NCBI GenBank assembly: GCA_039818205.1
Contig: JBCBUK010000015.1
Coordinates: 38,980-102,979, forward strand
Reading direction: 5' to 3'
Source: Verrucomicrobiota bacterium
Lineage (GTDB): Bacteria; Verrucomicrobiota; Verrucomicrobiia; Opitutales; Cerasicoccaceae
Length of the DNA: 64,000 nt
The notes under the pieces were generated by a model, which ran no database searches, was not told the DNA's origin, and saw only the letters and a program-made list of their open reading frames with translations. Below are positions 2,682-43,409 of this stretch, piece by piece; position 1 is the stretch's first letter; the number at the start of each line of letters is the position of its first letter. Both the position numbers and the translations under genes were made by a program.

Positions 2682-5600
2682 CTACTGATTTGATGAGCCA
2701 TCATCGTCGGGTTCTCGATCTATGGATCTTTGCTCAGGGTTCTCGATGCCGGTGTGCCGGAAAAGCAGGTGGAACGCTGCGAGTATTTGATCGAGCGTAT
2801 CGTCTGTTCGTTCGTCTAGGGACAGCTTGGGCAAAACAACACTCGGTCGGTCGGCGAGTTTGTCGCCGAGTTTTTCGATGGCATTGGCAAAGAGTTGCGC
2901 AGACTCGTTCCCTTGAGCAGTTGCTTCGGTACCTCGGGTGGCAGATTCGATCGTTCGGGCTAGTTGGTCAAGCACTTCGGACGTCTCTTTGGATAAAGCG
3001 ATTTCAGGCTTCTCTGCCTGGTCTGTAGTGAGTATTTTTTTCAGCCCAGCCAATGATTCAGCATCGATTTGGAAGGGTTGTTGCGGGGATGGTTTCGGTA
3101 TGAGCGTCGCGAGCTTAGTTAGTGTTTGCTCGTCGATCTGGAGAGGTCGAGCTTCGGGTCTAGGTGGTAGGATTGCCTTAAGTTTTTCGAGGGTCTCGTC
3201 GTCGAATGAAACCGGTTGGCGCATAGCGGCCAGGCGCTCACCCAGTCCTTCGAGGCCAGAGCTCAATGCCATATTGTTATCGGCTAGTTGATTGACGACT
3301 TTGTTAACTGGATCGCTCTCTGATCCACCGAGTATCTTGTTTTTGACGAAGCGTTTCTTGATCTCCTCCCAGCGCTCAATTTCCGGTTCAGTGATTTTAC
3401 CTTCTAGTTGACGAAATTTTAATAGGTTCGCCTCGGCACCATTGGTCAAGGTCTGTGCCTCGTTCTCGTAGTGGTCGTCGATAATGGATTCGACTTCGTC
3501 ATCGGTCATTATCGGGAGGAGTTTCTCCGCAATTCGGTTCATGTTCCGGTAAGAGCCCTGCAGTTTAAACGGCGGCTCGGTTCGGAATTCATCGGCTTGT
3601 GCTGCGCTTTTGATATACTCGAGGTTTACGCGTAAAATCGTGTCTCGGACTCGCATCATTTTCTTCATGACACCGACCATTTCTTCGGTCTCTTCAGCGG
3701 TATAGCTGCCTTCAAAATCGACACCTTCGCGAATGCCGGTCTTTGCTATTTTGATGACTGCATAGACATCTTTTCGGCTTCGATTGGACAGAGGGCGAAG
3801 CGCGGCATTTGACGTGAGGGCATTCTCCAAATAGCTGTTCTCAAAGGCGCTGTGGTGCCCGCCAACAATGTCGCCAAGGTTGTAGGTATCGGCGCGGTTC
3901 GCCAGCATATCGGGGATTTGGAACTTGCCGCCGGTTTCAGTGTATGGGTTGCCAGCCATCACGACTGCAACTTTGCGACCTTTGAGATCATAAGTTCTCG
4001 CTTTTCCTTTGTAGACACCTTCGATTTTCCGTTGGGCATCGCATAAGGAAATGAACTTCTGGAGTAGCTCGGGATTGCAGTGCTGGATGTCGTCGAGGTA
4101 AATCATGACATTGTCACCCATCTCGAAGGCTAGGTTTAGCTTCTCAACTTCTTCAGCAGCAGCTTTGTTGGGTGCCTCTTCTGGATCGATACTGGTAACA
4201 TGGTGACCGATTGCGGGTCCGTTGATTTTGACGAAAGTTATCCCTAGGCGATTGGCAACATACTCCATGAGGGTCGTTTTACCATACCCGGGTGGGGAGA
4301 TTAGGAGCAACATCCCCATGCGGTCGGTGCGGGCATCTTCGCCGGCGGTACCGATCTGTTTGGCGAGATTCTCACCAATGACTGGAAGATATACTTTATC
4401 GAGTAGTTGATTTCGAACAAAGGCACTCATCACTCGAGGCTTCATTTCCTCCAAACGGAGGTCGTCTTTTACTAGGTCGACCAGTTCGGCTTTGCGATCC
4501 AGGTAGCGTCGATAGGTTGGGACGACCTCGCGCTCATGATGGCGAAGCTTCATGAGAAAGTGGTTGTAGTTGAGGTGCAGCTTCCGGTCTACAATGATTG
4601 GGTGATCGCCTCGGAGGCCGTCGATGTCGACTTCTATGGGCACTTCTACAATATGACGCTTTTCGATTGGTCCACGCAGCAAGTGAGCGGCCGCCTCGTC
4701 GATATATTCAAAGTCTCGTTCGGGTAAGTTCTGGGTCAACGCAAAGCCACGAAGCCAGTCACGTAGGATCTGAAACTCACCTGCGGCATCGTTCTTCATT
4801 GCAGCTCGGGCATCTTCAATCTTCTCGGTATAGCGTTTAGCGACAAGTTCGTGATGGAAGGCTTCCGCTAGCGCAGCGGACTCCCGAGAAATCGCGTAAG
4901 ACTCTCGGTCGACTAATTCAAAGAAGAGATACTCGGCCGCGTCCTCCGAAAACTGGTGATCGCAAAGCATATGTTCGGAGCGAAAGGCCTCAATACGGAG
5001 TTTAAGTTCTCCGATATAGCCTTTTTGTGAATGGTGCTCGGGGAACAAGCGAAGCATCTCACCGAACGCGTCGACTTTCGCAGCCAAAAGGTCATCGCTA
5101 TTCTGCTCAGTACTGAAGTGCTTCCAGTAGACTAATGCGAGCGCACGAGCGGTCGGATGATAGCGAAGAAGGCCGACCGATGTATGAATATCCAGCAGAG
5201 CATTAATGAGCTTTTGCCCGTCCTCGTCGTGGACACCTTTCATGTAGGCTTCGTCGTATCGAGGCGCCATGAATTTTTGTACCAACTCGATTTGAGCCGA
5301 TTCTTCCATTGTCTGATAGTCTTCGGTTGAAATCCTGAGCTCGCTTGATATCTCTGGCAATGGAGTTTCGAAGTGCTTCAGTAGCTGATAGGCGAGAAAC
5401 TCTCCCCGGTAAACACTGTCGGTTTCGCTGACAGTGCTCATTTCCCAAACGGGTTTTGTTTCAAGCAGAACTGAATCATCAATGCGCTCGAAGAACTGAG
5501 TCCCGGCTAGGTGGAAGTAAATATCGTCTTCTCGCTGCACCGTCGTTAATGCCAGTTCTTGAGTGTTGACGCTGAATCGATAGCGCCCAAACCGTATGAT

Positions 5601-8165
5601 ATCTTCACCGTCGACGAAGAGCTCTTGTTTATCTTTCAGTTGGCGAATCGCGTCGCTCTGAATGGTTTTCAGCTGACCGAGGATATCGTCGCCCTTGAGG
5701 TTTTCGCCTATCTGGTTGAGTTCGCCCGCGAGATCGCGGACCTTTTCAACCATTAGGTCGCTGGCGAAATAGCCATTGATATCGGTTGTCTCTTTAAAGC
5801 CTTTCGCTCGATTCTCAATCCCATGAAGGATCCGTTTTGCGCTGGCAATGAGGCGAGTAGTTTGCCGGTTGCGGGCCTCTTGTAAGGCCATTTTCTTTGT
5901 CTCGAAGGCATTGTATAGCTCGTCTCGTTTCGTTGAGAGCTCATCCAGATACTCGTCAAAATCGGAGTATCGGCTCTCTAGCTCCTCAAGCTGAATCATC
6001 AACTTAGAGAGGTAATCGTCACACTGCGCTGGCGTGTCGCAGATGTCCAAATAGTTGGCGACCGCCTGATTCAGTAGCTTAAGTTGCGCATTGAACTGAG
6101 CTGCTCCTTCCGACTTCATCAGCTCTTTCCGGCGATTCTTCAGCTCATTTCTAATCTGATTTAGACGGGAGTAGATATTGGAAACTGAATCAATGATGCG
6201 AGTTGTCTGAGTGGCGTCTTCAATTTTGAGATTCCCGACAATTTCGATAAGTAGTTCGAGCTCTGCACCAGCTTCTCCCAGTTTTTCTTCAATCTCATTT
6301 GCCTCAGTTACCTTCTCAATGGATTCAAGAGCTTCTGCCTGTAACTCGACGGCCTCCCGATATGGGTCTAGGGCTTCATCAAGGAGTAAAAATTCCACTG
6401 CTTGGTGAGCCACTTGTTCGGATAGCCCGCGCACCTGCTCTTCCATCGTTTGGGTAAGTGCTATCTCCGCATAGCGCAAATCGCGCAGGCCAATGATCTC
6501 ACCCCGTAGCGTTCGAAGGTCTGCAAGGCTACGCACAAAGCCCATAATATCATCTGGGCGAGTACTACCGATCTCAGTGGTTAGCTGACGGACTCGCTTC
6601 GAAACATCTTTTGTTTGCTCTTTGGTGGCCTTGCGTATTCGTCGCACTTTGTCGAACTCATCGATAGCGCTTTGAGCCGTCTTGTTGATCGACTGTAGCG
6701 TGGCGCGGATATTTCCGGCTTCGTCATTATCGAGCCAGAAGTAGGTGTCGAGAACATCGCTGGTCAATTTCACGAGGTCGATATAGATGCCTGAGTAGGT
6801 CTCGTCCTTTTGCAAAAGATTATACACTTCATAGCATTCGCTCATTGCGCGAACGACTTCTTTGTTTCCCACTTTGAAAAGATAACTATCTGCCTTGCCG
6901 GTGGGAGGCAAACTGTCACTTGCATAGGGGGTTTGCCAGATCTGCAGCGAATGATGTTTCTGAGCTTCCTGATCTCCTCGAATGTAAACCATCTCACCGT
7001 TGTCAAAGATGGTAAAGCCGTGACAGATAATCGGTGTCGAAACGGTTTGTCGAATCAGGTTGTAACTCATCAAGACGTATTCTCCGCCACCCCGTTCGTA
7101 GAACGAGAAAAGGAAGTCTTCCCCGTTGGGTGCCTTGACCAATCGCTCGAACCACATGTTGCTGTGTTCGCTATCGAATAGCTTGCACTCGCCGTTGTGC
7201 AGGTAATAGCCATTGGCAAAAATGACTCCCTGGTCTTCGGGGAGCGCGACACAGCTTGTGCCGATGGCATCCGTCCGCTGAACTTCATTTACTTTGCTGT
7301 TGAAAATGAAGTAGCGGATATCTTTTTCCTGATAGGGCTTGATACGAAGGAGAACTAGGTCGCCCACGACTGCGTAAAAGATGTCCGCATCGTCGAGAGT
7401 CTGGTCAACATGATCAACAGGCTCCGAGTAGATGCCTTCACCACTCTCCGTGTTGTCTTCAACCTTAATGGTCAGGTCGCCGCCAACAGTCTCGACAAAG
7501 AGTTTGTCTTCAATTGAAACATGGGGGTGTTGGCCGCTCCGTTGCATGTCTCTATGCGCCCGCTTCCACTCGAAGGTATGCTGAGACGGAAATCGATACT
7601 CTGGGTCAAATCGATTGCCGAGATACTCCAAGCCGTCGTCGGTAATCAACCATTTGAAGACTTTTATGTCGCGGACATCTTCGCTGATCCGAAACGCCAT
7701 GTAGAGCTGCTGGCCAACTACAAGGAATTTTACAAAAGTGGTCGACTTGTAATACTTGTATAAGTATGCGAAGTCTTCGCGAAACTCGACGTTGGCTAGC
7801 AGGACTAGAGATTCGGAGTGGAACGATTTGTCTTCGGTTAGGTGAAAAACGGCAAAGACATCGCCGATCTCCATCTGAGACTTTAATCCGAGTTTGACGT
7901 TATAGCCAAATAGAAATCGGTTGCCTGGCAGGGCGAACATGTCTCGCGGCACACAGTTGTGTGCAGTCGTGACTCGATCCGTTGCTACTAACCGATTCTC
8001 GATGGCGCCGAATACGACCTGCCGTTGCGCATCGAGTAGATTCAACCGCTCGAGCAGCTCGGAACCCTGTTGGTCAAGGCGTTGGCGAATAACTTCGTAG
8101 GCGCCGCCTTCGAGCCGTTCGCTCGAGGCCTTTGTCGTATCGTTCTTCGTGGCGGTTTCTGCCAT
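2682..8165 (-). CDS. Giant AAA+ ATPase (DUF3686 'DNA repair ATPase' family): beta-rich N-domain, long helical/coiled-coil stalk, MoxR/dynein-like AAA+ domain
   Basis: Walker A ISPPGYGKTT, Walker B MIYLDDIQH, sensor-1 MAGNPY, putative Arg finger MLANRAD. Likely start is MAETATK at 8165. Confidence 0.85.
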   Translation of the reverse strand: MAETATKNDTTKASSERLEGGAYEVIRQRLDQQGSELLERLNLLDAQRQVVFGAIENRLVATDRVTTAHNCVPRDMFALPGNRFLFGYNVKLGLKSQMEIGDVFAVFHLTEDKSFHSESLVLLANVEFREDFAYLYKYYKSTTFVKFLVVGQQLYMAFRISEDVRDIKVFKWLITDDGLEYLGNRFDPEYRFPSQHTFEWKRAHRDMQRSGQHPHVSIEDKLFVETVGGDLTIKVEDNTESGEGIYSEPVDHVDQTLDDADIFYAVVGDLVLLRIKPYQEKDIRYFIFNSKVNEVQRTDAIGTSCVALPEDQGVIFANGYYLHNGECKLFDSEHSNMWFERLVKAPNGEDFLFSFYERGGGEYVLMSYNLIRQTVSTPIICHGFTIFDNGEMVYIRGDQEAQKHHSLQIWQTPYASDSLPPTGKADSYLFKVGNKEVVRAMSECYEVYNLLQKDETYSGIYIDLVKLTSDVLDTYFWLDNDEAGNIRATLQSINKTAQSAIDEFDKVRRIRKATKEQTKDVSKRVRQLTTEIGSTRPDDIMGFVRSLADLRTLRGEIIGLRDLRYAEIALTQTMEEQVRGLSEQVAHQAVEFLLLDEALDPYREAVELQAEALESIEKVTEANEIEEKLGEAGAELELLIEIVGNLKIEDATQTTRIIDSVSNIYSRLNQIRNELKNRRKELMKSEGAAQFNAQLKLLNQAVANYLDICDTPAQCDDYLSKLMIQLEELESRYSDFDEYLDELSTKRDELYNAFETKKMALQEARNRQTTRLIASAKRILHGIENRAKGFKETTDINGYFASDLMVEKVRDLAGELNQIGENLKGDDILGQLKTIQSDAIRQLKDKQELFVDGEDIIRFGRYRFSVNTQELALTTVQREDDIYFHLAGTQFFERIDDSVLLETKPVWEMSTVSETDSVYRGEFLAYQLLKHFETPLPEISSELRISTEDYQTMEESAQIELVQKFMAPRYDEAYMKGVHDEDGQKLINALLDIHTSVGLLRYHPTARALALVYWKHFSTEQNSDDLLAAKVDAFGEMLRLFPEHHSQKGYIGELKLRIEAFRSEHMLCDHQFSEDAAEYLFFELVDRESYAISRESAALAEAFHHELVAKRYTEKIEDARAAMKNDAAGEFQILRDWLRGFALTQNLPERDFEYIDEAAAHLLRGPIEKRHIVEVPIEVDIDGLRGDHPIIVDRKLHLNYNHFLMKLRHHEREVVPTYRRYLDRKAELVDLVKDDLRLEEMKPRVMSAFVRNQLLDKVYLPVIGENLAKQIGTAGEDARTDRMGMLLLISPPGYGKTTLMEYVANRLGITFVKINGPAIGHHVTSIDPEEAPNKAAAEEVEKLNLAFEMGDNVMIYLDDIQHCNPELLQKFISLCDAQRKIEGVYKGKARTYDLKGRKVAVVMAGNPYTETGGKFQIPDMLANRADTYNLGDIVGGHHSAFENSYLENALTSNAALRPLSNRSRKDVYAVIKIAKTGIREGVDFEGSYTAEETEEMVGVMKKMMRVRDTILRVNLEYIKSAAQADEFRTEPPFKLQGSYRNMNRIAEKLLPIMTDDEVESIIDDHYENEAQTLTNGAEANLLKFRQLEGKITEPEIERWEEIKKRFVKNKILGGSESDPVNKVVNQLADNNMALSSGLEGLGERLAAMRQPVSFDDETLEKLKAILPPRPEARPLQIDEQTLTKLATLIPKPSPQQPFQIDAESLAGLKKILTTDQAEKPEIALSKETSEVLDQLARTIESATRGTEATAQGNESAQLFANAIEKLGDKLADRPSVVLPKLSLDERTDDTLDQILAAFHLLFRHTGIENPEQRSIDREPDDDGSSNQ

Positions 8166-8264
8166 AGTTGTTTTGGCTCCCAGCTGGTGGAGATTTACAC
8201 AGACCTTCGATGACACCGCTGCCTTCTCGAGAAACGGTGTGTCGATGCCCAGTTGGTTCGGAAA

Positions 8265-10313
8265 CTAGTTCTGAAAAAGCTGGTCGAGGAACTCTCCTGC
8301 TTTTTTGCCACTGATTCCATATTTCTCGGCGAGAGACTTTAGGTCGGTCACCTCCTTTTTATCCTGCCCTTCAGCTTGATCGGATATCCGTGCAAGTAAT
8401 GCGGCGATAGAGAGGTTCTTGATGTCCTCAGAGGAGATGTTGAACTGTTCGGTCCACTCCTTCAGCTTCGCTTTGAAGTACTCACCATTGCCATTGAAGA
8501 AGGTTTCCTTGACGTCCGTTAGCGCCTTCGAGTTGTCCATTAGACGGTCAATAGATTTTCCGCGCGAGACTGCACCTACAACTCGGTCGTAGAAGTCGGT
8601 GTTGCCACCCACAATATCGACGCGAGTATTCTTGAGCGCCGCTCCAAGAACCTGTGCTTGGTGTTCGGCAATCTTCTCATTGACCTCTATTTCTGCGAGC
8701 TCAACTTCCTTGTCCTTCTGGAGCCGCAGCTTGAATTCTTCATGTTCTTTGCCGGCCTCGTTGAATACCTTCATTGCTTCAGCCTTTTTATTAATGCCCT
8801 CTGCCTCGGCCAGGTATTTCTTTTCGTCAGCGCTTGCTTCAGCCGCTCCCTTCTCGCCGATGCCTTTTGCTTCGGCAAGGAACTTCTTCTCGGCTACAGA
8901 TGCCTCGGCTTCACCTTGCTTCTGGTAGGCATCAGCTTTGGCTTCTAAGACTTTCGCTTCACCCAAGCCCATCGCGGCGGCTTCGGCCGTTCGGCCGTCA
9001 GCCAAGGTTTTCTTGGCGGCGGAATCACGTCCAGCAGCTGTTTCCCGCGCTTCGGCTGAGATGACGGTCTCTTCGGCTTCAAGCTCGATCGCTTTCTTGG
9101 ATGATTCGGCTTTGCGGACTTCGTGGTAGTAGAGTTCATCGGCTTTCAGTTGCTCGGCCTCTTTGCTCGCTTGCGCGGTTTTGACCTTCTCGACCAATTG
9201 TTCTTCAGCCCTTTGTTCGGCTGCCGTAATCGCAACTTTCTTCTCTCGCTCTGCGCCAGCAAACGCTTCGGTGTCTTTGATTTTTTCTTGTTCAACGACC
9301 ACGGTTTTTTCCACCATGACTCGTTCTTTGATTACCTCTTGAATCTCACGTTTTTCTTTTTCAACGGCTTTATCTTTCTCGATATCAGCCAATGACGTAA
9401 CTTTGTCACGCTCTACGACTTCGAGTTGGCGGTCGCGCTCTACCCGCTCAGTTTCAACCGCATCGGTGCGCTGCTTGTTTTTCTGGGCTACAATAATTTG
9501 CCGCTCCTTATTTTCCTCGGCAATTGAGATCTCTTCTTCGGTTACGATGCGTGCTTGCTCGGCCCGCAAGCGTTGCTCCTCGTGCACGCGTGCTGCCTCA
9601 GCTTCTTCGCGTGAGGTTATAACGGATATCTCACGTTTTTGTTTCTGCTCAGCTTCCGCTTGTTGCTTCTCAAGTTCCAACACGGCTTCACGTGCTTCAA
9701 CGTTCTGTTTGGTGATCGTTTTGATGCGATCCTGGTCAATCTGGTTCGCTAAGATTTTCTCGCGGGATGTCCGGTCGGTAATCTTTTTGATGCCTTCGGC
9801 ATCTAGAATATTCTGGGGATTGAGGTCGTTGATCGACGTCTGCTCTAGAAAGTCGATCGCAGCATCATCCAGAACATATCCGTTCAGGTCGGTTCCGATA
9901 ACTTTGGTGATTTCATCGCGGAAGCTTTCGCGTTCGATATAGAGTTCTTCGAAGTCGAACTGCTTGCCAACGGTTTTCAATGCCTCGGAAAACTTCGCGT
10001 CGAAAAGTTCCTTGATCTTTTCCGGATCGCTGGCGCGGTCGCAACCGATCGTGGTCGCAACTTGGCGGACGTCTTCAATGGTGTTGTTGACCCGAACGAA
10101 GAAGTCGACGGTGATGTCGGCGCGGATGTTGTCTTTACAGATTAATCCTTCCTTGCCGCGTCGATCAACGCGAACGCGCTTGATGGAGATGTCCATCCGC
10201 TCCAGTAGGTGGGCGAACGGAAGAACAAACATTCCCGAAAAGGAGACCTGGGTGCCACCGATGCCGGTGCGAACCATTGCAAGGCCCTTCTTAGTCTTAC
10301 GATATACGATCAT
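8265..10313 (-). CDS. Flotillin/YqiK-like SPFH protein with long EA-rich coiled coil
   Basis: GLICKDNIRADITVDFFVRVN and FSEALKTVGKQFDF SPFH motifs; AE/EA-rich tail; no N-terminal TM helix. Confidence 0.9.
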   Translation of the reverse strand: MIVYRKTKKGLAMVRTGIGGTQVSFSGMFVLPFAHLLERMDISIKRVRVDRRGKEGLICKDNIRADITVDFFVRVNNTIEDVRQVATTIGCDRASDPEKIKELFDAKFSEALKTVGKQFDFEELYIERESFRDEITKVIGTDLNGYVLDDAAIDFLEQTSINDLNPQNILDAEGIKKITDRTSREKILANQIDQDRIKTITKQNVEAREAVLELEKQQAEAEQKQKREISVITSREEAEAARVHEEQRLRAEQARIVTEEEISIAEENKERQIIVAQKNKQRTDAVETERVERDRQLEVVERDKVTSLADIEKDKAVEKEKREIQEVIKERVMVEKTVVVEQEKIKDTEAFAGAEREKKVAITAAEQRAEEQLVEKVKTAQASKEAEQLKADELYYHEVRKAESSKKAIELEAEETVISAEARETAAGRDSAAKKTLADGRTAEAAAMGLGEAKVLEAKADAYQKQGEAEASVAEKKFLAEAKGIGEKGAAEASADEKKYLAEAEGINKKAEAMKVFNEAGKEHEEFKLRLQKDKEVELAEIEVNEKIAEHQAQVLGAALKNTRVDIVGGNTDFYDRVVGAVSRGKSIDRLMDNSKALTDVKETFFNGNGEYFKAKLKEWTEQFNISSEDIKNLSIAALLARISDQAEGQDKKEVTDLKSLAEKYGISGKKAGEFLDQLFQN

Positions 10314-10350
10314 GATTCGATAGTTGTTTCAATATTGTTGTTTAAAAGTG

Positions 10351-10944
10351 TTAGCGTAGCTCATCCGCTTTTGTCCCTTGAGCCGAATGATACTCGGGTG
10401 GAAATTTATCTAGATGGTCAAATGCGACGCGATCGACTAACAGTCCGGAGAGATGGGAATCGAGCGCTCGAGATATTTCGCCTTTCAGCCTCTTGGGGTC
10501 TTTCTGAACATCAGCCCATGCAATCCGATTCGATTCTGATTGGATGACTTTGGTTGCTTGTTGTTCGATCAACGGGCGCAGTAATTCTCCATTGTTCAAT
10601 GCGTCGACTCCATACTGCCGAATCGCATATAAGGCTTCGTTTGGTTTGTCCGAAAGGCGAAAGTTGATGCCGATCTCGAGGTCAAACATTTGACCGTCTT
10701 CGGTCATGAGTGATTCCTCCGGACCCCGAAAGGAAAGCGCGAATGGAATGATCGTCAGGTCTAGAACACGATAGGTTTGTATGAGCGGAATGACCACCAG
10801 CGCATCAGCGGATAGCTTTGGACCACCGAAACCGTCTCGGAATATCGCCGAACCCGCTGGGGAGTTCTTCAGGCACAGAAGAGCTAGAACTCCAATCAGG
10901 AGGAAGAAAGATACTACTAATACAGCGATTTCGCCGGTGCTCAC
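10351..10944 (-). CDS. Membrane-anchored SPFH (band-7) domain-only protein
   Basis: N-terminal TM helix followed by a divergent SPFH domain (GFGGPK...VIPLIQTYRVLDL...LMTEDG); no coiled-coil tail; 4-bp overlap with the upstream gene. Confidence 0.75.
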   Translation of the reverse strand: MSTGEIAVLVVSFFLLIGVLALLCLKNSPAGSAIFRDGFGGPKLSADALVVIPLIQTYRVLDLTIIPFALSFRGPEESLMTEDGQMFDLEIGINFRLSDKPNEALYAIRQYGVDALNNGELLRPLIEQQATKVIQSESNRIAWADVQKDPKRLKGEISRALDSHLSGLLVDRVAFDHLDKFPPEYHSAQGTKADELR

Positions 10945-11630
10945 GTCTTTCCTCCTTCCTCTGCTGAGTGGGGAGCCTCTTCGGTGGCGATCACGATGTA
11001 GCGACGACCGTCATCGCTTTTTCTGACGATTTTTGCATGGTCACCCTTGGAGAGAAGATGCTCTCCTGCGTCCAATTGTACGCTGAACTTGCAGGGCACG
11101 CCATCATGCGAAACTACTATCTCGCCAAAGCTATCGGTGACCTCGCCGGTCGTGACGGTGCCCACGGCTCCAATAAATGTTTCCTTCTGGGAGGTGATTC
11201 CAAATATTCTTCTAATTAGACGGGCGAAAAATCTCATAACAACTCGAGTAACGTACCAGGCAATTGCCAGCGATCCGGCCATGATGGCGATTCCAATGCC
11301 CCAGACGCTGACTGGATTAAAAAAGTAGTTCAGCAGCATCATGGCCGACCACATAAGGGTAATAAAGAAAGTGAGCGAAACCGTGAACGGAGCTTCACCA
11401 TCGCTCAGTGCCCGTGAGAATCGCGCAAAGAAACCGGAGCCGTCGCTGTCGACTCCACCCTCTCCGTCCACGTCTAGGTCAAAGTCAAATGCAGCGCCAA
11501 AAATACTACCAAGAATGCTAAGCGTCCAGTAGAGTAGCACGAGGCCTAACATGATGGTAAATGGCAAATTATACCAGCGTGTTGCCTCGGTGTAAATTTG
11601 CTCTAGAAGGTCCATGGTTGGGAAGTTCAT
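10941..11630 (-). CDS. YqiJ/NfeD-like membrane protein (flotillin partner)
   Basis: TM helices, acidic DFDLDVDG linker, GEAPFTV motif and a C-terminal OB-fold (IGAVGTVTTGEVTDSFGEI...LSKGDHAKIV). Confidence 0.8.
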   Translation of the reverse strand: MNFPTMDLLEQIYTEATRWYNLPFTIMLGLVLLYWTLSILGSIFGAAFDFDLDVDGEGGVDSDGSGFFARFSRALSDGEAPFTVSLTFFITLMWSAMMLLNYFFNPVSVWGIGIAIMAGSLAIAWYVTRVVMRFFARLIRRIFGITSQKETFIGAVGTVTTGEVTDSFGEIVVSHDGVPCKFSVQLDAGEHLLSKGDHAKIVRKSDDGRRYIVIATEEAPHSAEEGGKT

Positions 11631-11869
11631 CTTTTTTGTGACTTATATGCGGTTTTGTCGAGTATAGTTGCTCGGATGTATCGAAATCCATTACATTAAT
11701 CACGGTCTTTTATAAAGAGACTGAAGGTTGCCGATCACTCGTTTTTTTGAAATCCTTTTTCCTGGACGATTGATTGGAATCTCACGCAGTATGGCTTAGT
11801 GAGCTCGATCTGAGCCGCACATGTAAATTCAAGCTGGCCGAAAGAGCGGATTCTTTTATCAATTAATCT

Positions 11870-13912
11870 GTGGAAAATTGTGTTCACCGGCTAGACTCGA
11901 TTAATAGCTCCAGTGTTGGTTTTGCTGGCGGAAAGGGGGCTTCGCTTGGCGAGTTGATCTCGGCAGGTTTCAATGTCCCCCAGGGATTCGTTGTTTCCCG
12001 GGTGGCCTTCGATGCATTTTTAGAAAATGCTGATCCCGACGGAAGAATTTCATCGCTCCTCGCCGATATCACTGACCGTAAATCCAAAGTGTTTCCGATT
12101 GCCCAAGAGATTTCGGCTTTCCTGGGGCCGGCTGAGATTCCGTCTAGTGTTTTAGGAGCGGTGGTTGGGCTCTATCGTCAGATGGGATTGGGGCGAGTGG
12201 CAATCCGATCCAGTGCGACCTGCGAGGATGGAGCCCAAAGTGCCTGGGCTGGCCAATTGGACACCTATTTTAATGTGAGTGAGGCGGAACTCGGAGAGAA
12301 ACTCAAGGAGTGTTGGCTATCCGCGTTCAGTCGTCGCGCGCTTGCTTATGCCGCTACGCACGGTTTTGACGGCTCGAATTTTGGCGTCGCGGTTGTTGTT
12401 CAAGAGATGATACCGAGCGCGATCTCTGGCATCGGCTTCTCGGTTCACCCCGTAACACAGGAGCCCAATCTAAGCCTAATCGAGGCGTGTTTTGGCTTAG
12501 GTGAGGCAATTGTGTCTGGAGAAGTCTCTCCGGACGCTTTCCTGCTGGATAAGGAAACGGGTGGGATTGTCGAGAGCTCCCGAGGCAATCAGAAGAAAGC
12601 CTTGGTGCTCGAGCCAGAGTCTCCGCAGCCGACTTGGCGCAATCTCGGTGACAAGGGTGCTGAGCCGAAACTGACTGATAGCCAAGCGCTCGAATACGGT
12701 GACATTTTGAACCGCATAGAGGCGCACTACTGCCGTCCGATGGATACGGAATGGGCCTACTACAACGGCGGGTTTCATGTGTTGCAAGCCCGGCCGATTA
12801 CGACACTTGCCCCAGGATACGACGAAAAATTTATTGATGATTCCGAGCCGTGGATGCGGCTTGTTAAACGTCCGTTTTCGCTGCTGGAGTATTCCATCAT
12901 CGGGCATTGGACGGATCCTAAACATGCCGCGAAAGACCTCGGCATCGAACGCTTGGATCACTTTCTTGGAATTCAGGATGATGCCGGGATGACGCATATG
13001 TATTTCCCAGAGCCACGGCTTATCGCGGCTCACGATCACCTGCTTGATCTGCGACAGAACGACCGCGATAAATTGATCGGTATCCTGGAGAAGGGCAAAC
13101 AGCTCTACGAAGAAGGGATGCAACGAATCGACAACGGAGTCACCTTCTCGAGTTTGCAAGAAGCCGCCGATTACTTCTGTGAAATCGGAAAATACACGGT
13201 GATCGTGCCAGCTTGGCTGCTGCTCGCAATGGAACGTGTGGGGGTGGATGATTCTGAAGTCCATGAACGTGCTGAGTGGTTGCGTGGTCACTCGGTGTAT
13301 CCTCGCTTGGTCCATAAACTGCTGCATCCCTACGTGATTGAACATGCTCGCGGGATCGGCTTTTCGGACCCCGAGCAAATACCCTTTGTCGCGACTTGGG
13401 ATGAACTTGTGCAAGGCGTAGATCTATCCGTGCTGGAAGCGCGTTTGGAGGCTGTTCGGTCCGGCTCGCGATTTGTCTACCAGATGATCGGCGAAGAATA
13501 CCAAGTTCGTTTGCTTCCGCAGACCGGTTACCTATTGATGCGATTGGCCCACGCGCACCTTCCGCCGGATCCGGAAGACGCGAATTGTTTAACGGGCCAA
13601 ACCGCTTGGCCAGGATTCCATCGTGGGCGAGCGCGCTTGGTATTGTCTTCTAATCCCGAGGGTTACCAGGTCGACCCTGGCGATGTCTTGGTTTCAGTTC
13701 AGTCCAATCCGAATCTAATGCCTTTGCTCAGGCATGCGGGAGCGATCGTCACCGACGAGGGTGGGGTTGCATGTCATGCGAGCATTGTCGCACGTGAACT
13801 CAAGGTGCCCGCGGTCACAGGCGTCGGGAATGCGACCAGTGCCATTCATGATGGCGACTTGATCGAAGTCGATGCGACTGAACAAGTCGTTAGGATCATC
13901 GAGCGTGTATAA
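11870..13912 (+). CDS. PEP-utilising dikinase-like enzyme with rifamycin-phosphotransferase-type domain order (ATP-grasp, substrate domain, His-swivel)
   Basis: GGKGASLGEL, AIRSSATCEDG...AGQ, VVVQEM, DTEWA, LQARPITT; C-terminal TDEGGVACHASIVAREL; no PEP-synthase TIM barrel. Confidence 0.85.
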   Translation: MENCVHRLDSINSSSVGFAGGKGASLGELISAGFNVPQGFVVSRVAFDAFLENADPDGRISSLLADITDRKSKVFPIAQEISAFLGPAEIPSSVLGAVVGLYRQMGLGRVAIRSSATCEDGAQSAWAGQLDTYFNVSEAELGEKLKECWLSAFSRRALAYAATHGFDGSNFGVAVVVQEMIPSAISGIGFSVHPVTQEPNLSLIEACFGLGEAIVSGEVSPDAFLLDKETGGIVESSRGNQKKALVLEPESPQPTWRNLGDKGAEPKLTDSQALEYGDILNRIEAHYCRPMDTEWAYYNGGFHVLQARPITTLAPGYDEKFIDDSEPWMRLVKRPFSLLEYSIIGHWTDPKHAAKDLGIERLDHFLGIQDDAGMTHMYFPEPRLIAAHDHLLDLRQNDRDKLIGILEKGKQLYEEGMQRIDNGVTFSSLQEAADYFCEIGKYTVIVPAWLLLAMERVGVDDSEVHERAEWLRGHSVYPRLVHKLLHPYVIEHARGIGFSDPEQIPFVATWDELVQGVDLSVLEARLEAVRSGSRFVYQMIGEEYQVRLLPQTGYLLMRLAHAHLPPDPEDANCLTGQTAWPGFHRGRARLVLSSNPEGYQVDPGDVLVSVQSNPNLMPLLRHAGAIVTDEGGVACHASIVARELKVPAVTGVGNATSAIHDGDLIEVDATEQVVRIIERV

Positions 13913-38030: not shown

Positions 38031-41000
38031 ATGACAAAAAGCCACTATTCAGTCATCACGATATTGTTGCCGCTTTGCGCCGTTGGCCAAACTGCGATCT
38101 GGCAAGGCGGCGGCGGCGGTGGCGGTGGCGATAACTGGACGAATAATGGCAATTGGATTGGGACCAATCCGAACGCGGCGGGCGCTATTGCGCAGTTTCC
38201 CGGGACCGCAGGCCGTTTTGATGTCGAATTGAACTCGAACCGAACCGTTGGGCAGATGCAGGTCGATTCGGCGACGAGTTATCTTTTTGATGGCGGGAAT
38301 ACGCTTACATTTGACAATAGCGGGACTGACGCAGTTTTCAGCGTGACCGGTGGTGGATCCCACACGTTTTCCATGCTGTCCAGCCTTGCGGACACGATCA
38401 ATTTCGACATCGATACCGGTTCTACGCTCACGGTAACGAATAACCTGACGGGAACGGGTGGCGTTCAGAAATCGGGCGGAGGGACCTTGATCATTCCCAG
38501 CTCGGCTCCTGCGAATAGCACCTTTTCCGGTGACAATTTGATCTCAGAAGGCAGATTGTCCATCGGGACGAGTGCGACACCAGTAACCGATGGAATCGTG
38601 TTTGGTGCAACCTCGTCGGGTGAGAATAGTCTTGGGGTTGGTGACACCGTAGTTGAGAGCGGCGCGGAGTTTTTTGTCTACTCGGATGCGAGCAGCGATG
38701 CGGTTGAATTTCGCAATAACAACACCATTGAAGATGGCGGCCGCATGCGCATCGAAACCAGTGGGGGCTCGGATAACGAGATTCAGTTTTACGACGAGTT
38801 TGATGTGGGCCGAAACATCGGCAGCGATGCCGAGTTGTTTGCGTGGACGGGTTCGCCGCTTACCAGCGATGCCGACATCCTGTTCGCAGCCAATTCGACA
38901 TTCGAATCCCTGGGTGACATCTGTATCATCGCAAGTGACGATATCGAGTTTCGGGGCAATGTAGAGATCAATGGGGGCAATCTGCTTTTTGTTGCCTTCG
39001 ATGATTTTGAGACGAGCCAAGGTGTGACTCCCGGCGATGCGCGTTTGAGTGTAACTGGCGGGGCCCAGATCACGGTCCTCACGTCATACCAGTATACTGG
39101 AGTTGCCGGTACGAGCGGTTTTGTTACTACGGGCGGTTCTGGGTCACAGTTTGAACTGCGTGACAACGACGTCATTCGGGTGGAGGATACTGGGTCGCGA
39201 TTTGACATCTACGCAAACGACGATGTCATCATCCAGGGCGACATTATCTGGGATGGAGGCAACGAGTTTCGCGTTTTGCGTTCGGGCGGTATCGGAACTT
39301 TTCTCGATGCGTCAGCAACGCTCGATGGCGGTTCGGGTAGCGAACAAGGAACCTTCCTGATTTCGGGTGATTTGATCGTCGAGAATACATCGACGCTCAT
39401 CAACAACCCGAACATCACGATTACGACCCTCCGCTACGATCAATCGGTCACCATCATGGGTGACGATTGCCCAGAGTTTACGCCATTTGTCGAAACTACC
39501 TCTACGAGCTCGACGGTTTCGGGCGCGAGCGGCGGCGGAACTGATAATTTAACCGGCATTGGCACGTTTGCCAAGCAAGGTGCTGGAACGACCAACCTTA
39601 CACTCGACAGCGTCGGCGCTCAGGTGATTGCCGTGGAGGAGGGAACACTGACGACCGATAAAGATAACCTGATCGTTGCGGGTGCTGATTTGGAGATCGG
39701 GACAAGCTCGACTTCGGGAACCTTGGATATTTCGGACGACGACCATTCTTTCAACAACATCGAAATCACTCAGGGCAATATCTATACCGATACCGGAACC
39801 CTGACGATTACTGGCGATACCGTTACGAAGGAAGCAAATGGTACTGCCGGTGTCATCGCTACTGATGCCGGACAGAGTGGCTTGGCTTCCGTGGTGCTAA
39901 CCAATAGCGAGGTAACCTTTGATATTGGTGATGACGGTACGGCCGCCTCGGACCTGACCATTGCTGGCAATGTCACGGGAACTTCCAATGTCACTAAGAC
40001 GGGGGACGGCACGTTGACCATCACTGGGACAAGCGCGCACTCGGGCAGCACAACCATCAACGGTGGAACACTCGATGTTCAGGAGCTGGATGACAATGCT
40101 GCTGTCATCATTAACAACTCTGGTTCTGAGTTGGTCATCAATGACAACGAAACGATCGGGTCACTTGCTGGCAATGGTGGAACCGTAACGATGGGCTCCA
40201 ATGATCTCACTGCTGGCGGCAACGGCGACAATACCACGTTTGCCGGTGACCTTTCAGGAAGCGGCACGTTTACCAAGACTGGGTCTGGTGAGATGACGCT
40301 AAGCGGCAGTAGCTCATTGACTGGCGATGTGGTTGTATCTGGAGGGAGTCTATTGGTGGACAATAACAGCGGTTCGGCCTTGGGCTCAATCAATGACATC
40401 CAGGTCAACACTGGTGCGGAAGTCCTCGTTCTACAGAGCGATCAGTTTAATACCAACGCTAGCTTAACGCTAAACGGTGGGAGTTTTGCCTTTGACCAGA
40501 GCAGCGGGACAACTTCCTTCAACGAGGAGTTCGCGAATCTGTTTGTGACCGACGACTCGACGATCGCTTACGCGGGAGATTCTGCTATTCTCACATTTAA
40601 CGGGGGTAATTTTGGATCAGGCGACATGCTCGATATCGACACCTGGGATGGGTCGATTACGGGTGGCGGCGCTCACCAGTTCATTATTGATACTTCCTTG
40701 GTCGCCGACCCTGATTTGGATATTAATTTTACCGGTTACGCCGCGGGTTTTGAGACCATTGCTCTCGGTGGTGGCCTGTTTGAGATCGTGCCAACATTTG
40801 ATGATAGCAAAGTCTTTACCTGGACTGGCGGTACCGACAACGCATGGGACGACAACGGCAACTGGACTTCGACGCCGGAGAACGACTTCCCTCAAGAGGC
40901 GGGCGATTACGCAATCTTCAATAATACCGGTTCGGGCGAGACATCAGTTGAGCTAACCGGTGACCGCACGATTGGCTATCTCGAGTTTGCCGAGAGCACC

Positions 41001-43409
41001 AGCTACACCTTGAACGACGATGGTTCGACGCGCTCAATAAACTTTGACACCGACGATGGTCTTGCGGCTCGAATGACGCTTTCCGGCTCGGGCACGCAAA
41101 CGATCAACGTCGATCTGGAGAATGACGACGGCGACGGGCTGATCATTGCGCAGAATTCCACCGGAGGCTTGATTCTCGACGGTGACCTGAACTCGAATGG
41201 AAACGATGTCATCGTTCGTGGCGCGGAAGACACAACGCTCAACGGTGCGCTCACTGGAAGTGGCGGACTGACGAAGTCGGGTTCCGGGACCTTGACGATC
41301 GAGTCGACTACAAACAATAGCTTTTCCGGAGATGTCGCGGTTGACTCCGGGGACCTGATCATTGCGGGTTCGGACTCATTGGGAACCGGCTCAAACGCAA
41401 TCACTGTTGGTAGTGCTTCCGCCAATGCTGATGCACGCCTGCTCTCGAAAAATAGCGGCGTCGATCTGGATCAAGACATCGATATTATCGCATCACCTCA
41501 GGCAACCGTGCTCGGTGGAACGCATTCCAGTGGCACCTCAACGTTTAGCGGCGATATCGACCTGGGGCAAAATGCCACCTTAACCGCGGCGACTGGCGGA
41601 ACGGTTGAGTTCACCGGTGAGATTACGGGCTCCAACGGTTTGGATAAAATTGGGGGCGGACGGGTTATCTTGGATGATGGTTCCAATACGAACTCATTCA
41701 GTGGTGCCTCGACCATCCAGGAAGGGACTTTGCAGGCCAATACCGCGACATCACTCGGAAGTCTCGGTTCCAATGCCTGGACCATGAGTGAAGGCACCGA
41801 TCTGGAGTTGAACTACTCGACGGGCACAGGGCTGAACAGTGGCAACGTGATTGTCAATGGAGGGGCAGCGGGCTCGACCATTGAGCGGACTGCAACGGGT
41901 GGCACCGATACCAACCTTCTTTCGACCGGCGGAACTCTGACCGCCAATGGCATCACCAATTTGGTAAACACCGGGTCTGGCGGCGGTGCGCTAAATATCG
42001 GCGGCACGACGAACGTAACCTCGGGTGCGACGCTGAATTTGGTAACCTCGAGCGCGAACAGTTCCGAGATCAGTTTCAATGGTTCGGGTGAGTCGATCTC
42101 GATCGCCGCAGGCGGTCTGGTGCAAACCAGCGGTGGTGGACGAATCGATTTCGGCGGGAGTAACGCCATCACCATTGAGGGGCAGGGAACGGCGGCGGAC
42201 CTTGAATCACGTTTGGTGCTCGATGATCTCACTGATTTTTCGAATGGAAACAATTCAACGATACTGGAGGTTAATGGTGCAGACTGCTTCGGCCTCGAGA
42301 TCGAGGGCTCGGCCTCGCAGTTAACGTCGATGCTTGATTTGGGCACGGCAAACTCACGACTGGACACGCTGACCGGTTCCGGAGGTACGCTGACTTTGCG
42401 CACGACCACGAATGGTTTAACGATCGAAGATGGCCCCACCTCGAGCAGCAATGTTAGCCTTGGTATTGGTTCGAACTCATCATCGCCGTCCACGATTACG
42501 GTCACCTTGGACAATACTGGCAGCACGCTTGACAACTATGCGGGCGTCGTTGTCCGAGAAAACAGTGCGAATACCGAAAGCAATCCTCAGTCAACGGGCG
42601 ATCTGACCGCGCTCACACGAGTCGAGCTCGTCGGTGGCGATTTGGACCTTACCGGACAGGCTGACTCGCAGGTATATGTTAAGGAGGGAATTCTTGACCT
42701 TAACAGTAACGACATCGACATCGCAGGAACTGCAACCATCGAAAAGGGCGACCTGGTGGGAGATGCGTCTAGCACCCTGACGGCGGATACCATTCGCTTC
42801 AACGCTCCGAATTCCTTTACCTCGACCGTAGGTATCACCTTGGACACATCTGCTGGGACCGAGATTCTGCTGGATGGCGGCACGGTCATGTTTGACGGCG
42901 GCTCGATTGCCAATGGCTCCAATGTTGATATGTCAGGCGGCCTTCTGGACTTGGGCACATTCGCGCAAACCGGCGACGGCGTAACGCTGGGAACTTTGAC
43001 GCTATCTGAGGTTTCGCGACTGAATTTTGGCGAGAACGATCACTCGCTCACCTTTGCCAATAGCCGCGATATACTCTGGGTCGGCGGCGCCGGTGATTTC
43101 TTGTATATTGAGGAGTGGGCCGGAGATGTATCCGGTGGTGGCAATGATCAGTTGCTTTTCCAAAACGCACCGATGAGCCAATTTGGCGTAAATGATATCC
43201 AATTGGCCCAGATTCGATTTATCAATCCTGCTGGCTTCGATCCTGGCGTCTATGATTCGCGGATATTGACTTCCGGTGAGATTGTCCCGGGTTCGTTTGT
43301 TGCACCAGTGCCCGAACCATCAACCTACTTAATGGGTGGGGTTCTCGCGACCTGTATTGGTATCCACTACTATCGCCGTCGCCGCAAGCGGGCCGCAGCG
43401 GCTGGTTGA
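38031..43409 (+). CDS. Large PEP-CTERM protein with autotransporter-associated beta-strand repeats, built from two tandem modules
   Basis: Signal peptide; repeated (V/L)xKxGxGTL units; C-terminal VPEPSTY, TM helix and RRRRKR. Confidence 0.92.
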   Translation: MTKSHYSVITILLPLCAVGQTAIWQGGGGGGGGDNWTNNGNWIGTNPNAAGAIAQFPGTAGRFDVELNSNRTVGQMQVDSATSYLFDGGNTLTFDNSGTDAVFSVTGGGSHTFSMLSSLADTINFDIDTGSTLTVTNNLTGTGGVQKSGGGTLIIPSSAPANSTFSGDNLISEGRLSIGTSATPVTDGIVFGATSSGENSLGVGDTVVESGAEFFVYSDASSDAVEFRNNNTIEDGGRMRIETSGGSDNEIQFYDEFDVGRNIGSDAELFAWTGSPLTSDADILFAANSTFESLGDICIIASDDIEFRGNVEINGGNLLFVAFDDFETSQGVTPGDARLSVTGGAQITVLTSYQYTGVAGTSGFVTTGGSGSQFELRDNDVIRVEDTGSRFDIYANDDVIIQGDIIWDGGNEFRVLRSGGIGTFLDASATLDGGSGSEQGTFLISGDLIVENTSTLINNPNITITTLRYDQSVTIMGDDCPEFTPFVETTSTSSTVSGASGGGTDNLTGIGTFAKQGAGTTNLTLDSVGAQVIAVEEGTLTTDKDNLIVAGADLEIGTSSTSGTLDISDDDHSFNNIEITQGNIYTDTGTLTITGDTVTKEANGTAGVIATDAGQSGLASVVLTNSEVTFDIGDDGTAASDLTIAGNVTGTSNVTKTGDGTLTITGTSAHSGSTTINGGTLDVQELDDNAAVIINNSGSELVINDNETIGSLAGNGGTVTMGSNDLTAGGNGDNTTFAGDLSGSGTFTKTGSGEMTLSGSSSLTGDVVVSGGSLLVDNNSGSALGSINDIQVNTGAEVLVLQSDQFNTNASLTLNGGSFAFDQSSGTTSFNEEFANLFVTDDSTIAYAGDSAILTFNGGNFGSGDMLDIDTWDGSITGGGAHQFIIDTSLVADPDLDINFTGYAAGFETIALGGGLFEIVPTFDDSKVFTWTGGTDNAWDDNGNWTSTPENDFPQEAGDYAIFNNTGSGETSVELTGDRTIGYLEFAESTSYTLNDDGSTRSINFDTDDGLAARMTLSGSGTQTINVDLENDDGDGLIIAQNSTGGLILDGDLNSNGNDVIVRGAEDTTLNGALTGSGGLTKSGSGTLTIESTTNNSFSGDVAVDSGDLIIAGSDSLGTGSNAITVGSASANADARLLSKNSGVDLDQDIDIIASPQATVLGGTHSSGTSTFSGDIDLGQNATLTAATGGTVEFTGEITGSNGLDKIGGGRVILDDGSNTNSFSGASTIQEGTLQANTATSLGSLGSNAWTMSEGTDLELNYSTGTGLNSGNVIVNGGAAGSTIERTATGGTDTNLLSTGGTLTANGITNLVNTGSGGGALNIGGTTNVTSGATLNLVTSSANSSEISFNGSGESISIAAGGLVQTSGGGRIDFGGSNAITIEGQGTAADLESRLVLDDLTDFSNGNNSTILEVNGADCFGLEIEGSASQLTSMLDLGTANSRLDTLTGSGGTLTLRTTTNGLTIEDGPTSSSNVSLGIGSNSSSPSTITVTLDNTGSTLDNYAGVVVRENSANTESNPQSTGDLTALTRVELVGGDLDLTGQADSQVYVKEGILDLNSNDIDIAGTATIEKGDLVGDASSTLTADTIRFNAPNSFTSTVGITLDTSAGTEILLDGGTVMFDGGSIANGSNVDMSGGLLDLGTFAQTGDGVTLGTLTLSEVSRLNFGENDHSLTFANSRDILWVGGAGDFLYIEEWAGDVSGGGNDQLLFQNAPMSQFGVNDIQLAQIRFINPAGFDPGVYDSRILTSGEIVPGSFVAPVPEPSTYLMGGVLATCIGIHYYRRRRKRAAAAG

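Follow-up and report, generated by a model that had tools for sequence, protein, structure and literature searches.

A giant ATPase of the DUF3686 family is encoded next to a long flotillin-like protein in a 64,000-nucleotide stretch of DNA from a Verrucomicrobiota bacterium (GenBank assembly GCA_039818205.1, contig JBCBUK010000015.1, positions 38,980 to 102,979; hereafter, the window). The two genes are preceded by two smaller ones on the same strand, and all four open reading frames were found at the coordinates, and with the family assignments, proposed in an initial annotation made from the sequence alone. We show herein that the long flotillin and the ATPase form the core of a system found in several phyla, and that, judged from its predicted topology, the flotillin faces the cytoplasm. 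An ATP-driven remodeller docked on a flotillin cage is the reading that we favor for this pair, with a probability of roughly 0.55. The four genes are as follows.

10941..11630, minus strand: YqiJ/short-NfeD-like membrane protein, 229 amino acids (aa), with three hydrophobic segments and a predicted OB-fold tail
10351..10944, minus strand: SPFH-only protein, 197 aa, with one N-terminal hydrophobic transmembrane (TM) helix followed by a Band_7 domain (E 3.5e-9), and no coiled coil
8265..10313, minus strand: long flotillin-like protein, 682 aa, with an SPFH domain, helical wall, cap and C-terminal extension, and no TM helix
2682..8165, minus strand: giant AAA+ ATPase (DUF3686, DUF7902 and AAA), 1827 aa from its ATG, with no TM segment and an isoelectric point (pI) of 5.0

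The first two genes overlap at a GTGA junction, where the GTG start of the SPFH-only gene lies over the stop codon of the YqiJ-like gene. Gaps of 37 nucleotides and about 100 nucleotides separate the SPFH-only stop codon from the flotillin and the flotillin from the ATPase, respectively. An alternative GTG start at 8216 would extend the ATPase to 1844 aa. Because the upstream neighbor is divergent and the downstream neighbor convergent, the four genes constitute a standalone unit.

Co-occurrence of the long flotillin and the ATPase

A total of 105 loci was examined, comprising 26 from genome handles, the best 78 of 547 relatives (two sets that may overlap) and the window; 22 were dropped for short flanks, leaving 83 informative loci with at least 6 kb upstream. 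On the same strand beside the ATPase, a long flotillin was present at 76 of these 83 loci, a YqiJ-like gene at 73 and a PspA gene at no fewer than 26, while other neighbors varied freely. Of the seven remaining loci, six had the flotillin elsewhere in the genome. The initial annotation had set this survey beforehand as a test that could refute a link to flotillin, and the link came through it.

The same association was seen genome by genome. In the phylum of the window, the ATPase occurs in 27 of 401 genomes, and the long flotillin (E values up to 4e-83, two candidates scored per genome) in 26, all of them among those 27; none of the 374 ATPase-less genomes has it. Five shorter flotillins, about 30% identical, occur in ATPase-less genomes, and the four that were fetched (L159-L162) lack the C-terminal extension; that of L159 sits with PspA and YqiJ. 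In a second phylum, centered on an Adhaeribacter locus (L082), the ATPase and the C-terminal region of the flotillin were each found in 12 of 281 genomes, and the 12 genomes are identical. Thus, near-perfect co-occurrence, kept even when the genes are unlinked, identifies the long flotillin and the ATPase as the core of the system. YqiJ was not found in genomes G313, G372 or G390.

The DUF3686 ATPase family is large: of 8,000 candidates that were scored, at least 7,289 belong to it, and about 50% identity is retained across phyla. The closest named relatives of the protein in the window are from Cerasicoccus species (77-78% identity). The ATPase was also found in 13 records of a plasmid collection, several of them chromosome-sized, and the flotillin was adjacent in all three such loci opened (Pseudomonas, Streptomyces and Vibrio). 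In pQBR103 (L144:678-3732), the module follows genes for DUF2491, DUF350, DUF1190 and glutathionylspermidine synthase, which is the polyamine-linked context of Ravi et al. (PMC11237479). In the Vibrio record (L146:11525-13300), the genes after the ATPase encode a phospholipase D-like protein and TelA.

Architecture of the ATPase and the flotillin

The ATPase matches DUF3686 (PF12458, E 1.9e-181, 603.9 bits against a cut-off of 25), DUF7902 (PF25472, 97 bits against 26), AAA and AAA_5 in Pfam. AlphaFold2 models built from 67-sequence alignments reached a mean predicted local distance difference test (pLDDT) score of 86 for residues 15-1190 and 83 for residues 1130-1660. Three parts can be discerned.

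6933..7994, minus strand: beta-propeller-like head, residues ~58-411; AlphaFold2 pLDDT 86; Foldseek matches to WD40 proteins (DCAF1, Sec12)
5619..6866, minus strand: helical arm, a well-conserved chain of three-helix bundles, residues ~434-849; generic bundle matches, Z 12 or less
3396..4466, minus strand: AAA+ module, residues ~1234-1590; AlphaFold2 model, motifs, and NorQ and CbbQ fold matches

The all-beta head matched WD40 propellers with a Foldseek E value of about 1e-6 and with TM-scores that are low because the model contains several domains. A VIA search with the N-terminal model returned generic helical bundles only, and the propeller was barely probed there. The AAA+ module carries Walker A (PPGYGKTT), Walker B (hhDDIQH), sensor 1 (GNP), arginine finger (NRAD) and sensor 2 (GSYR) motifs, and the cores GYGKTT, DDIQH, GNP, NRAD and GSYR are kept in all 93 full-length homologues.

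Members of the MoxR clade of AAA+ proteins are recognized by a pre-sensor-1 hairpin, a helix-2 insert and a helical insertion before sensor 2. All three elements are also predicted by the model of the module, in which the helices ahead of sensor 2 are long. When it was ranked against 48,161 PDB representatives, the best folds were NorQ (Z 15.8; PDB 9QH4, root-mean-square deviation 4.1 over 239 aligned residues) and CbbQ (Z 15.7; 6L1Q, 4.0 over 251), at 12-15% identity, followed by CLPB (13.7), dynein (13.1), midasin (12.6) and Vps4 (11.8). Foldseek placed CbbQ first, then RuvB and MCM. As modelled, the module is therefore MoxR-like, the insert before sensor 2 included. The beta-rich head, helical stalk and intact MoxR/dynein-type module of the initial annotation are thus borne out, with the MoxR-clade folds ahead of dynein.

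The ATPase differs from NorQ and CbbQ, its closest counterparts in fold, in having about 1230 extra N-terminal residues, a DD Walker B motif and no adjoining gene for a von Willebrand factor A (vWA) partner. No vWA gene was seen at the locus in the window or in 33 downstream neighbors scanned. The ATPase would work like MoxR proper, as in the RavA, CbbQ and NorQ systems, but is not a member, since those systems are defined by the vWA adaptor. Searches of Pfam and NCBIfam gave no protease, nuclease or DNA-binding family, in agreement with the initial annotation, and only weak P-loop matches beyond the protein's own domains; PDB sequences gave short P-loop matches only. The modelled parts are all acidic (pI 4.8-5.3), and the pre-sensor-1 hairpin bears conserved K/R residues and an aromatic tip. 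After about residue 1640, length and sequence vary. In the window, this tail (~2700-3250, minus strand) has repeats rich in proline, and at its end lies a short motif common to Cerasicoccus and one Opitutales homologue. In some assemblies (L120, L134 and G677:C32), copies of the ATPase gene are split into several frames, by sequencing error or decay.

The flotillin comprises an SPFH domain (residues ~1-180), a helical wall of about 383 residues, a beta-strand cap and a family-specific C-terminal extension. It has no Pfam match of its own, and among 46 homologues Band_7 was matched by two and Flot (PF15975) by none; PDB sequence searches gave no match. Over 433 columns, its profile could be aligned (29% identity, probability 99.9) with four shorter flotillins, of which one was verified in Pfam as Band_7 plus Flot; Flot-type proteins gave no alignment to the last 183 residues. 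The protein is therefore flotillin-like with a C-terminal part specific to its family. The stretch from the SPFH domain to the cap strand measures 383 residues in the window and has a median of 368 in 80 sequences. The wall of human flotillin has 186 residues (10.1101/2024.05.09.593390), so the bacterial wall would be about twice as long.

The initial annotation was right about the flotillin gene and its length but overlooked the absence of a TM helix. The protein starts with MIVYRK, at the point where the TM helix of its homologues ends, and its reading frame is closed by a stop codon five codons upstream of the ATG. A TM helix is present in 75 of 80 full-length flotillins; the five without it are those of the window, three Cerasicoccus loci and genome G313. 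All six genomes of the genus (the window and five others, with which the named loci overlap) have the TM-less form, and two genomes of the sister genus have an ordinary TM flotillin. An assembly error was ruled out as the cause, since five congeners share the TM-less form. The identical sequence was also found in a separately assembled Logan contig, whose run may be the source of the assembly, so that it is not independent.

K/R residues are more numerous after the TM helix in 73 of the 75 TM-bearing homologues, and no export signal was found in the TM-less flotillins; these predicted features place the flotillin on the cytoplasmic side, so that cage and ATPase would share one compartment. An independent TM-less flotillin adjoins the ATPase in G313 (L049/L170, G313:C6 about 167700-175100), a genome 93% complete in which YqiJ and PspA were not found, and this locus is possibly a two-gene, soluble version of the system.

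Known systems, proposed function and alternatives

The arrangement itself is not novel. Ravi et al. (2024; PMC11237479) had already described the operon with and without PspA, including abbreviated forms of flotillin, YqiJ/YuaF and ATPase only, which have rows in the supplement; there the motor is classed simply as a novel AAA+, without an experiment. The locus in the window is the PspA-less, abbreviated YqiJ-flotillin-propeller/coiled-coil/AAA+ operon of those authors. It shares with theirs the gene order, the architecture of the ATPase and a Band-7 protein with a long coiled coil directly before it, and its YqiJ-like gene is the first of the operon and encodes three TM segments, as in their definition. 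It differs in lacking the CesT/Tir-PspA dyad of the full operon, in the inserted SPFH-only gene and in the flotillin, whose missing N-terminal TM helix makes the locus a variant; neither of the latter two appears in the portion of PMC11237479 consulted. What is new here, in an operon already described, is thus the anchor-less flotillin and the inserted SPFH-only gene.

The locus probably corresponds to bacC-bacD-bacE of Pseudomonas aeruginosa, an orthology to PA3729 and PA3728 drawn only from gene order in the papers. In bacABCDEF (PA3732 onward), a short NfeD (bacC) and an SPFH protein (bacD/PaFlo3) likewise precede bacE (PMC10948618, PMC13086221), but that operon also has bacA (CesT-like), bacB (PspA), bacF and a proposed sigma-54 site, none of which was seen here. 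The bacA-F genes are co-transcribed and their products co-accumulate (PMC10948618), and PA3728 is listed as an ATPase that is mutated in cystic-fibrosis isolates (PMC8190622). In the literature searched, which contains few subscription papers, we found no experiment on the ATPase, the terms BacE and BacD leading only to PMC10948618; no paper on a "DNA repair ATPase" with flotillin; for Cerasicoccus or Verrucomicrobia with flotillin or SPFH, one unrelated review and nothing on the TM-less variant; and no description of the DUF3686 ATPase in the accessible text of PMC8926400 (on Arc clusters) or PMC9239133.

Two further comparisons bear on function. The YqiJ-YqiK and YuaF-FloT flotillin operons have homologous SPFH and coiled-coil regions and a YqiJ partner, but their flotillins carry Pfam Flot and lack the C-terminal extension, and there is no ATPase. 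HflK/C-FtsH and prohibitin-m-AAA pair an SPFH cage with an AAA+ ring; however, FtsH and m-AAA are membrane-bound proteases, while the present ATPase is a soluble protein without a protease domain, from a different AAA+ clade.

The function guessed at by the initial annotation, remodelling of flotillin cages, is a reasonable one. We favor, at the odds given above, a cytoplasmic, ATP-driven remodeller that docks on a tall flotillin cage and acts in envelope stress. The co-transcription of the bac genes and the induction of PA3728-PA3732 by phage (PMC12041424) accord with this reading. Published work shows that flotillin assembles into a basket and that human flotillin attaches to the membrane via its SPFH1 surface (10.1101/2024.05.09.593390). 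By analogy, the bacterial flotillin would assemble at the inner membrane, on its cytoplasmic side, as a basket held in place by YqiJ. The ATPase would form a ring, and its propeller-tipped arm, in place of the vWA adaptor usual for MoxR motors, would bring that ring to the basket. ATP might then be spent in pulling on the cage or on proteins penned in it, whereby the microdomain would be opened, recycled or cleared under membrane stress. As the cage subunit of this genus lacks a TM helix of its own, it would be attached through the SPFH surface, YqiJ and/or the SPFH-only protein. Within this model, the cage subunit itself is a possible substrate, albeit at less than even odds, and the caged clients are an unlikely one. 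A bolder version also appears doubtful: the ATPase would be a dedicated opener and recycler of SPFH cages, a counterpart of Vps4 or NSF, and the TM-less cage of this genus, with a wall twice the length of that of human flotillin, would be detachable or soluble, docking reversibly via YqiJ and the SPFH-only adaptor and being released by the ATPase. A complex prediction with ATPase residues 15-700 and two copies of flotillin residues 540-682 scored 0.00 with an uncertain fold of the partner, and counts neither way.

Several observations weigh against the remodeller. Co-occurring genes share a pathway, but their products need not bind each other, and related genomes are not independent samples. 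Genome G316, 91% complete, has the ATPase, and neither flotillin nor YqiJ was found in it, even with profiles. The flotillin of pQBR103 matches only the first 92 of the 183 C-terminal profile positions, yet the ATPase is present; therefore, the far C-terminal tail cannot be the sole docking site. In all 93 homologues the Walker B motif is DD instead of DE, with Asp at the position of the usual catalytic Glu. Such a motif could point to slow hydrolysis or to a role as a switch. Finally, deletion of the presumed P. aeruginosa flotillin lowered biofilm by about 20% and caused no defect in growth or virulence (PMC13086221).

An alternative suggested by Ravi et al. is that the ATPase is a Vps4-like recycler of polymers of PspA, the bacterial ESCRT-III, and that flotillin only positions it; abbreviated operons might then use PspA encoded elsewhere (PMC11237479). 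The same-strand PspA genes counted above fit this proposal, as do three PspA genes on other contigs of the genome of the window. Nonetheless, Pfam PspA_IM30 turned up in no more than 20 of the 31 genomes with the ATPase, and five of the 11 misses are 99% complete genomes. One of the 11, G346, has a PspA-like gene by a custom profile, so the search has false negatives. PspA is optional in the system. The fold, moreover, is MoxR-like, with Vps4 well down the ranking, and one PspA of the genome of the window has a classical AAA gene of its own. Taken together, the proposal seems unlikely. That PspA gene lies in a separate operon (L059, G000:C9 about 176100-186600) with an NMT1-type binding protein, vWA, OmpA and the classical AAA ATPase, which resembles another PspA context in Ravi et al. 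In the same genome, L057 (G000:C2 about 553250-555850) is by inspection a classical psp locus, in which pspA and the gene for a PspF-like regulator diverge and a PspC-like gene is also present.

No better odds are given to a MoxR-type chaperone station, in which the ATPase would mature or unblock specific membrane complexes and flotillin would be a passive scaffold or regulator that is never remodelled. NorQ and CbbQ, the closest folds, have other proteins as their targets and work together with vWA partners (PDB titles; PMC8926400), and HflK/C cages enclose FtsH, which also acts on other proteins. However, no client gene was conserved among the neighbors examined, and the proposal overlaps in part with the caged-client branch of the remodeller model.

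A dedicated anti-phage or abortive-infection system is improbable. The patchy distribution in both phyla despite the identity retained between them, the plasmid-collection records, and the increased expression of PA3728-PA3732 in phage infection (PMC12041424) would suit such a role, but phage induction is generic for phage-shock genes, and the gene is highly conserved and kept in all six genomes of the genus. The ATPase had no match in 50,697 phage records and has no effector domain. For the specific anti-phage role raised by the initial annotation, PADLOC 2.0 (2023 library) offered only a weak, 30-residue P-loop match to IetA (E 9e-4). A DNA-repair ATPase, as the databases name it, is least credible of all: RuvB and MCM are among the Foldseek matches and the K/R of the pre-sensor-1 hairpin recalls nucleic-acid motors, but the modelled parts are uniformly acidic, DNA-binding and nuclease families are absent, no repair genes were recognized among the neighbors examined, the constant partners are membrane proteins, and "DUF3686" does not occur in the literature searched.

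The AAA+ partners that the cited papers name for SPFH cages are proteases enclosed by the cage. For the opening and turnover of such cages, a ready test case is offered by a MoxR-like motor that has no protease domain and accompanies one flotillin subfamily from phylum to phylum. Many proteins of the family are labelled "DNA repair ATPase" and may be mislabelled. The TM-less variant suggests that the cage faces the cytoplasm, and its flotillin may be purifiable without detergent for cryo-electron microscopy with the motor.

YqiJ, the SPFH-only gene and the upstream region

The YqiJ-like protein has no Pfam match of its own, but YqiJ_N is matched by 19 of 50 aligned homologues, and the ESM Atlas gives YqiJ/NfeD clusters at 0.94-0.95. 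The SPFH-only gene is specific to the genus and precedes the TM-less flotillin in all six of its genomes. The TM anchor ascribed to its product by the initial annotation is present in the window, but only three of the six SPFH-only proteins have it, and the gene is a lineage-level add-on outside the core of the system. A general rule whereby this protein always supplies the anchor in trans was rejected, as the other three lack a TM helix themselves. Between the window and its congeners, SPFH-only proteins are 33-35% identical, against 86-88% for the flotillins. The ratio of nonsynonymous to synonymous substitutions is about 0.1-0.3 in unsaturated pairs, the closest of which includes the overlapping upstream frame. 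Given this ratio despite the fast divergence, the gene appears to be retained under relaxed selection.

The SPFH-only gene probably arose by internal duplication of the 5' end of the flotillin, which yielded a TM-plus-SPFH gene followed by an SPFH-wall-cap gene. In quick trees, with 30 of 60 rows kept, forcing the SPFH-only and flotillin groups together gave a tree 1.15 log-likelihood units above the free one (approximately unbiased test, p-AU 0.56). With branches this long, that value neither rejects nor proves the duplication, which tells against leaning on it. In Bacteroidota and in a Polyangia genome, the flotillin again has SPFH paralogues of short or medium length (L076:4968-5606; L069 and L073, upstream of YqiJ; L142:746-1300; L163:2668-3258), which apparently stem from separate duplications, and two short paralogues of other lineages group with the flotillin of their own locus in a quick tree.

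Upstream of the operon lies a conserved element.

11652..11699, minus strand: TAATRTAAT ... ACTATACTsGACAAA, aligned in the window and three Cerasicoccus loci

Its core is present in all six genomes of the genus and occurs once in the genome of the window at two mismatches or fewer; judged from this conservation, it is a probable promoter or operator of the operon. A sigma-70-like site (11 of 12 matches; window 11596-11568, minus strand) falls within the first codons of the YqiJ-like gene, and may be a coincidence of conserved W-Y-N codons. Promoter and terminator scans gave counts at chance level. No site for the sigma-54 motif was found upstream of the operon. A Verrucomicrobia LexA motif was also absent there, but its nine exact sites in the genome, which served as the control, showed no recognizable repair genes downstream on inspection, and the absence therefore carries no information.

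The divergent neighbor (11870-13912, plus strand) encodes PPDK_N and PEP-utiliser mobile domains and is not kept beside the operon in the Cerasicoccus loci. Elsewhere in the window, the proteins encoded at 103-2241 and 38031-43409 (plus strand) are large and carry passenger-associated transport repeats; that of 103-2241 ends in a weak PEP-CTERM match.

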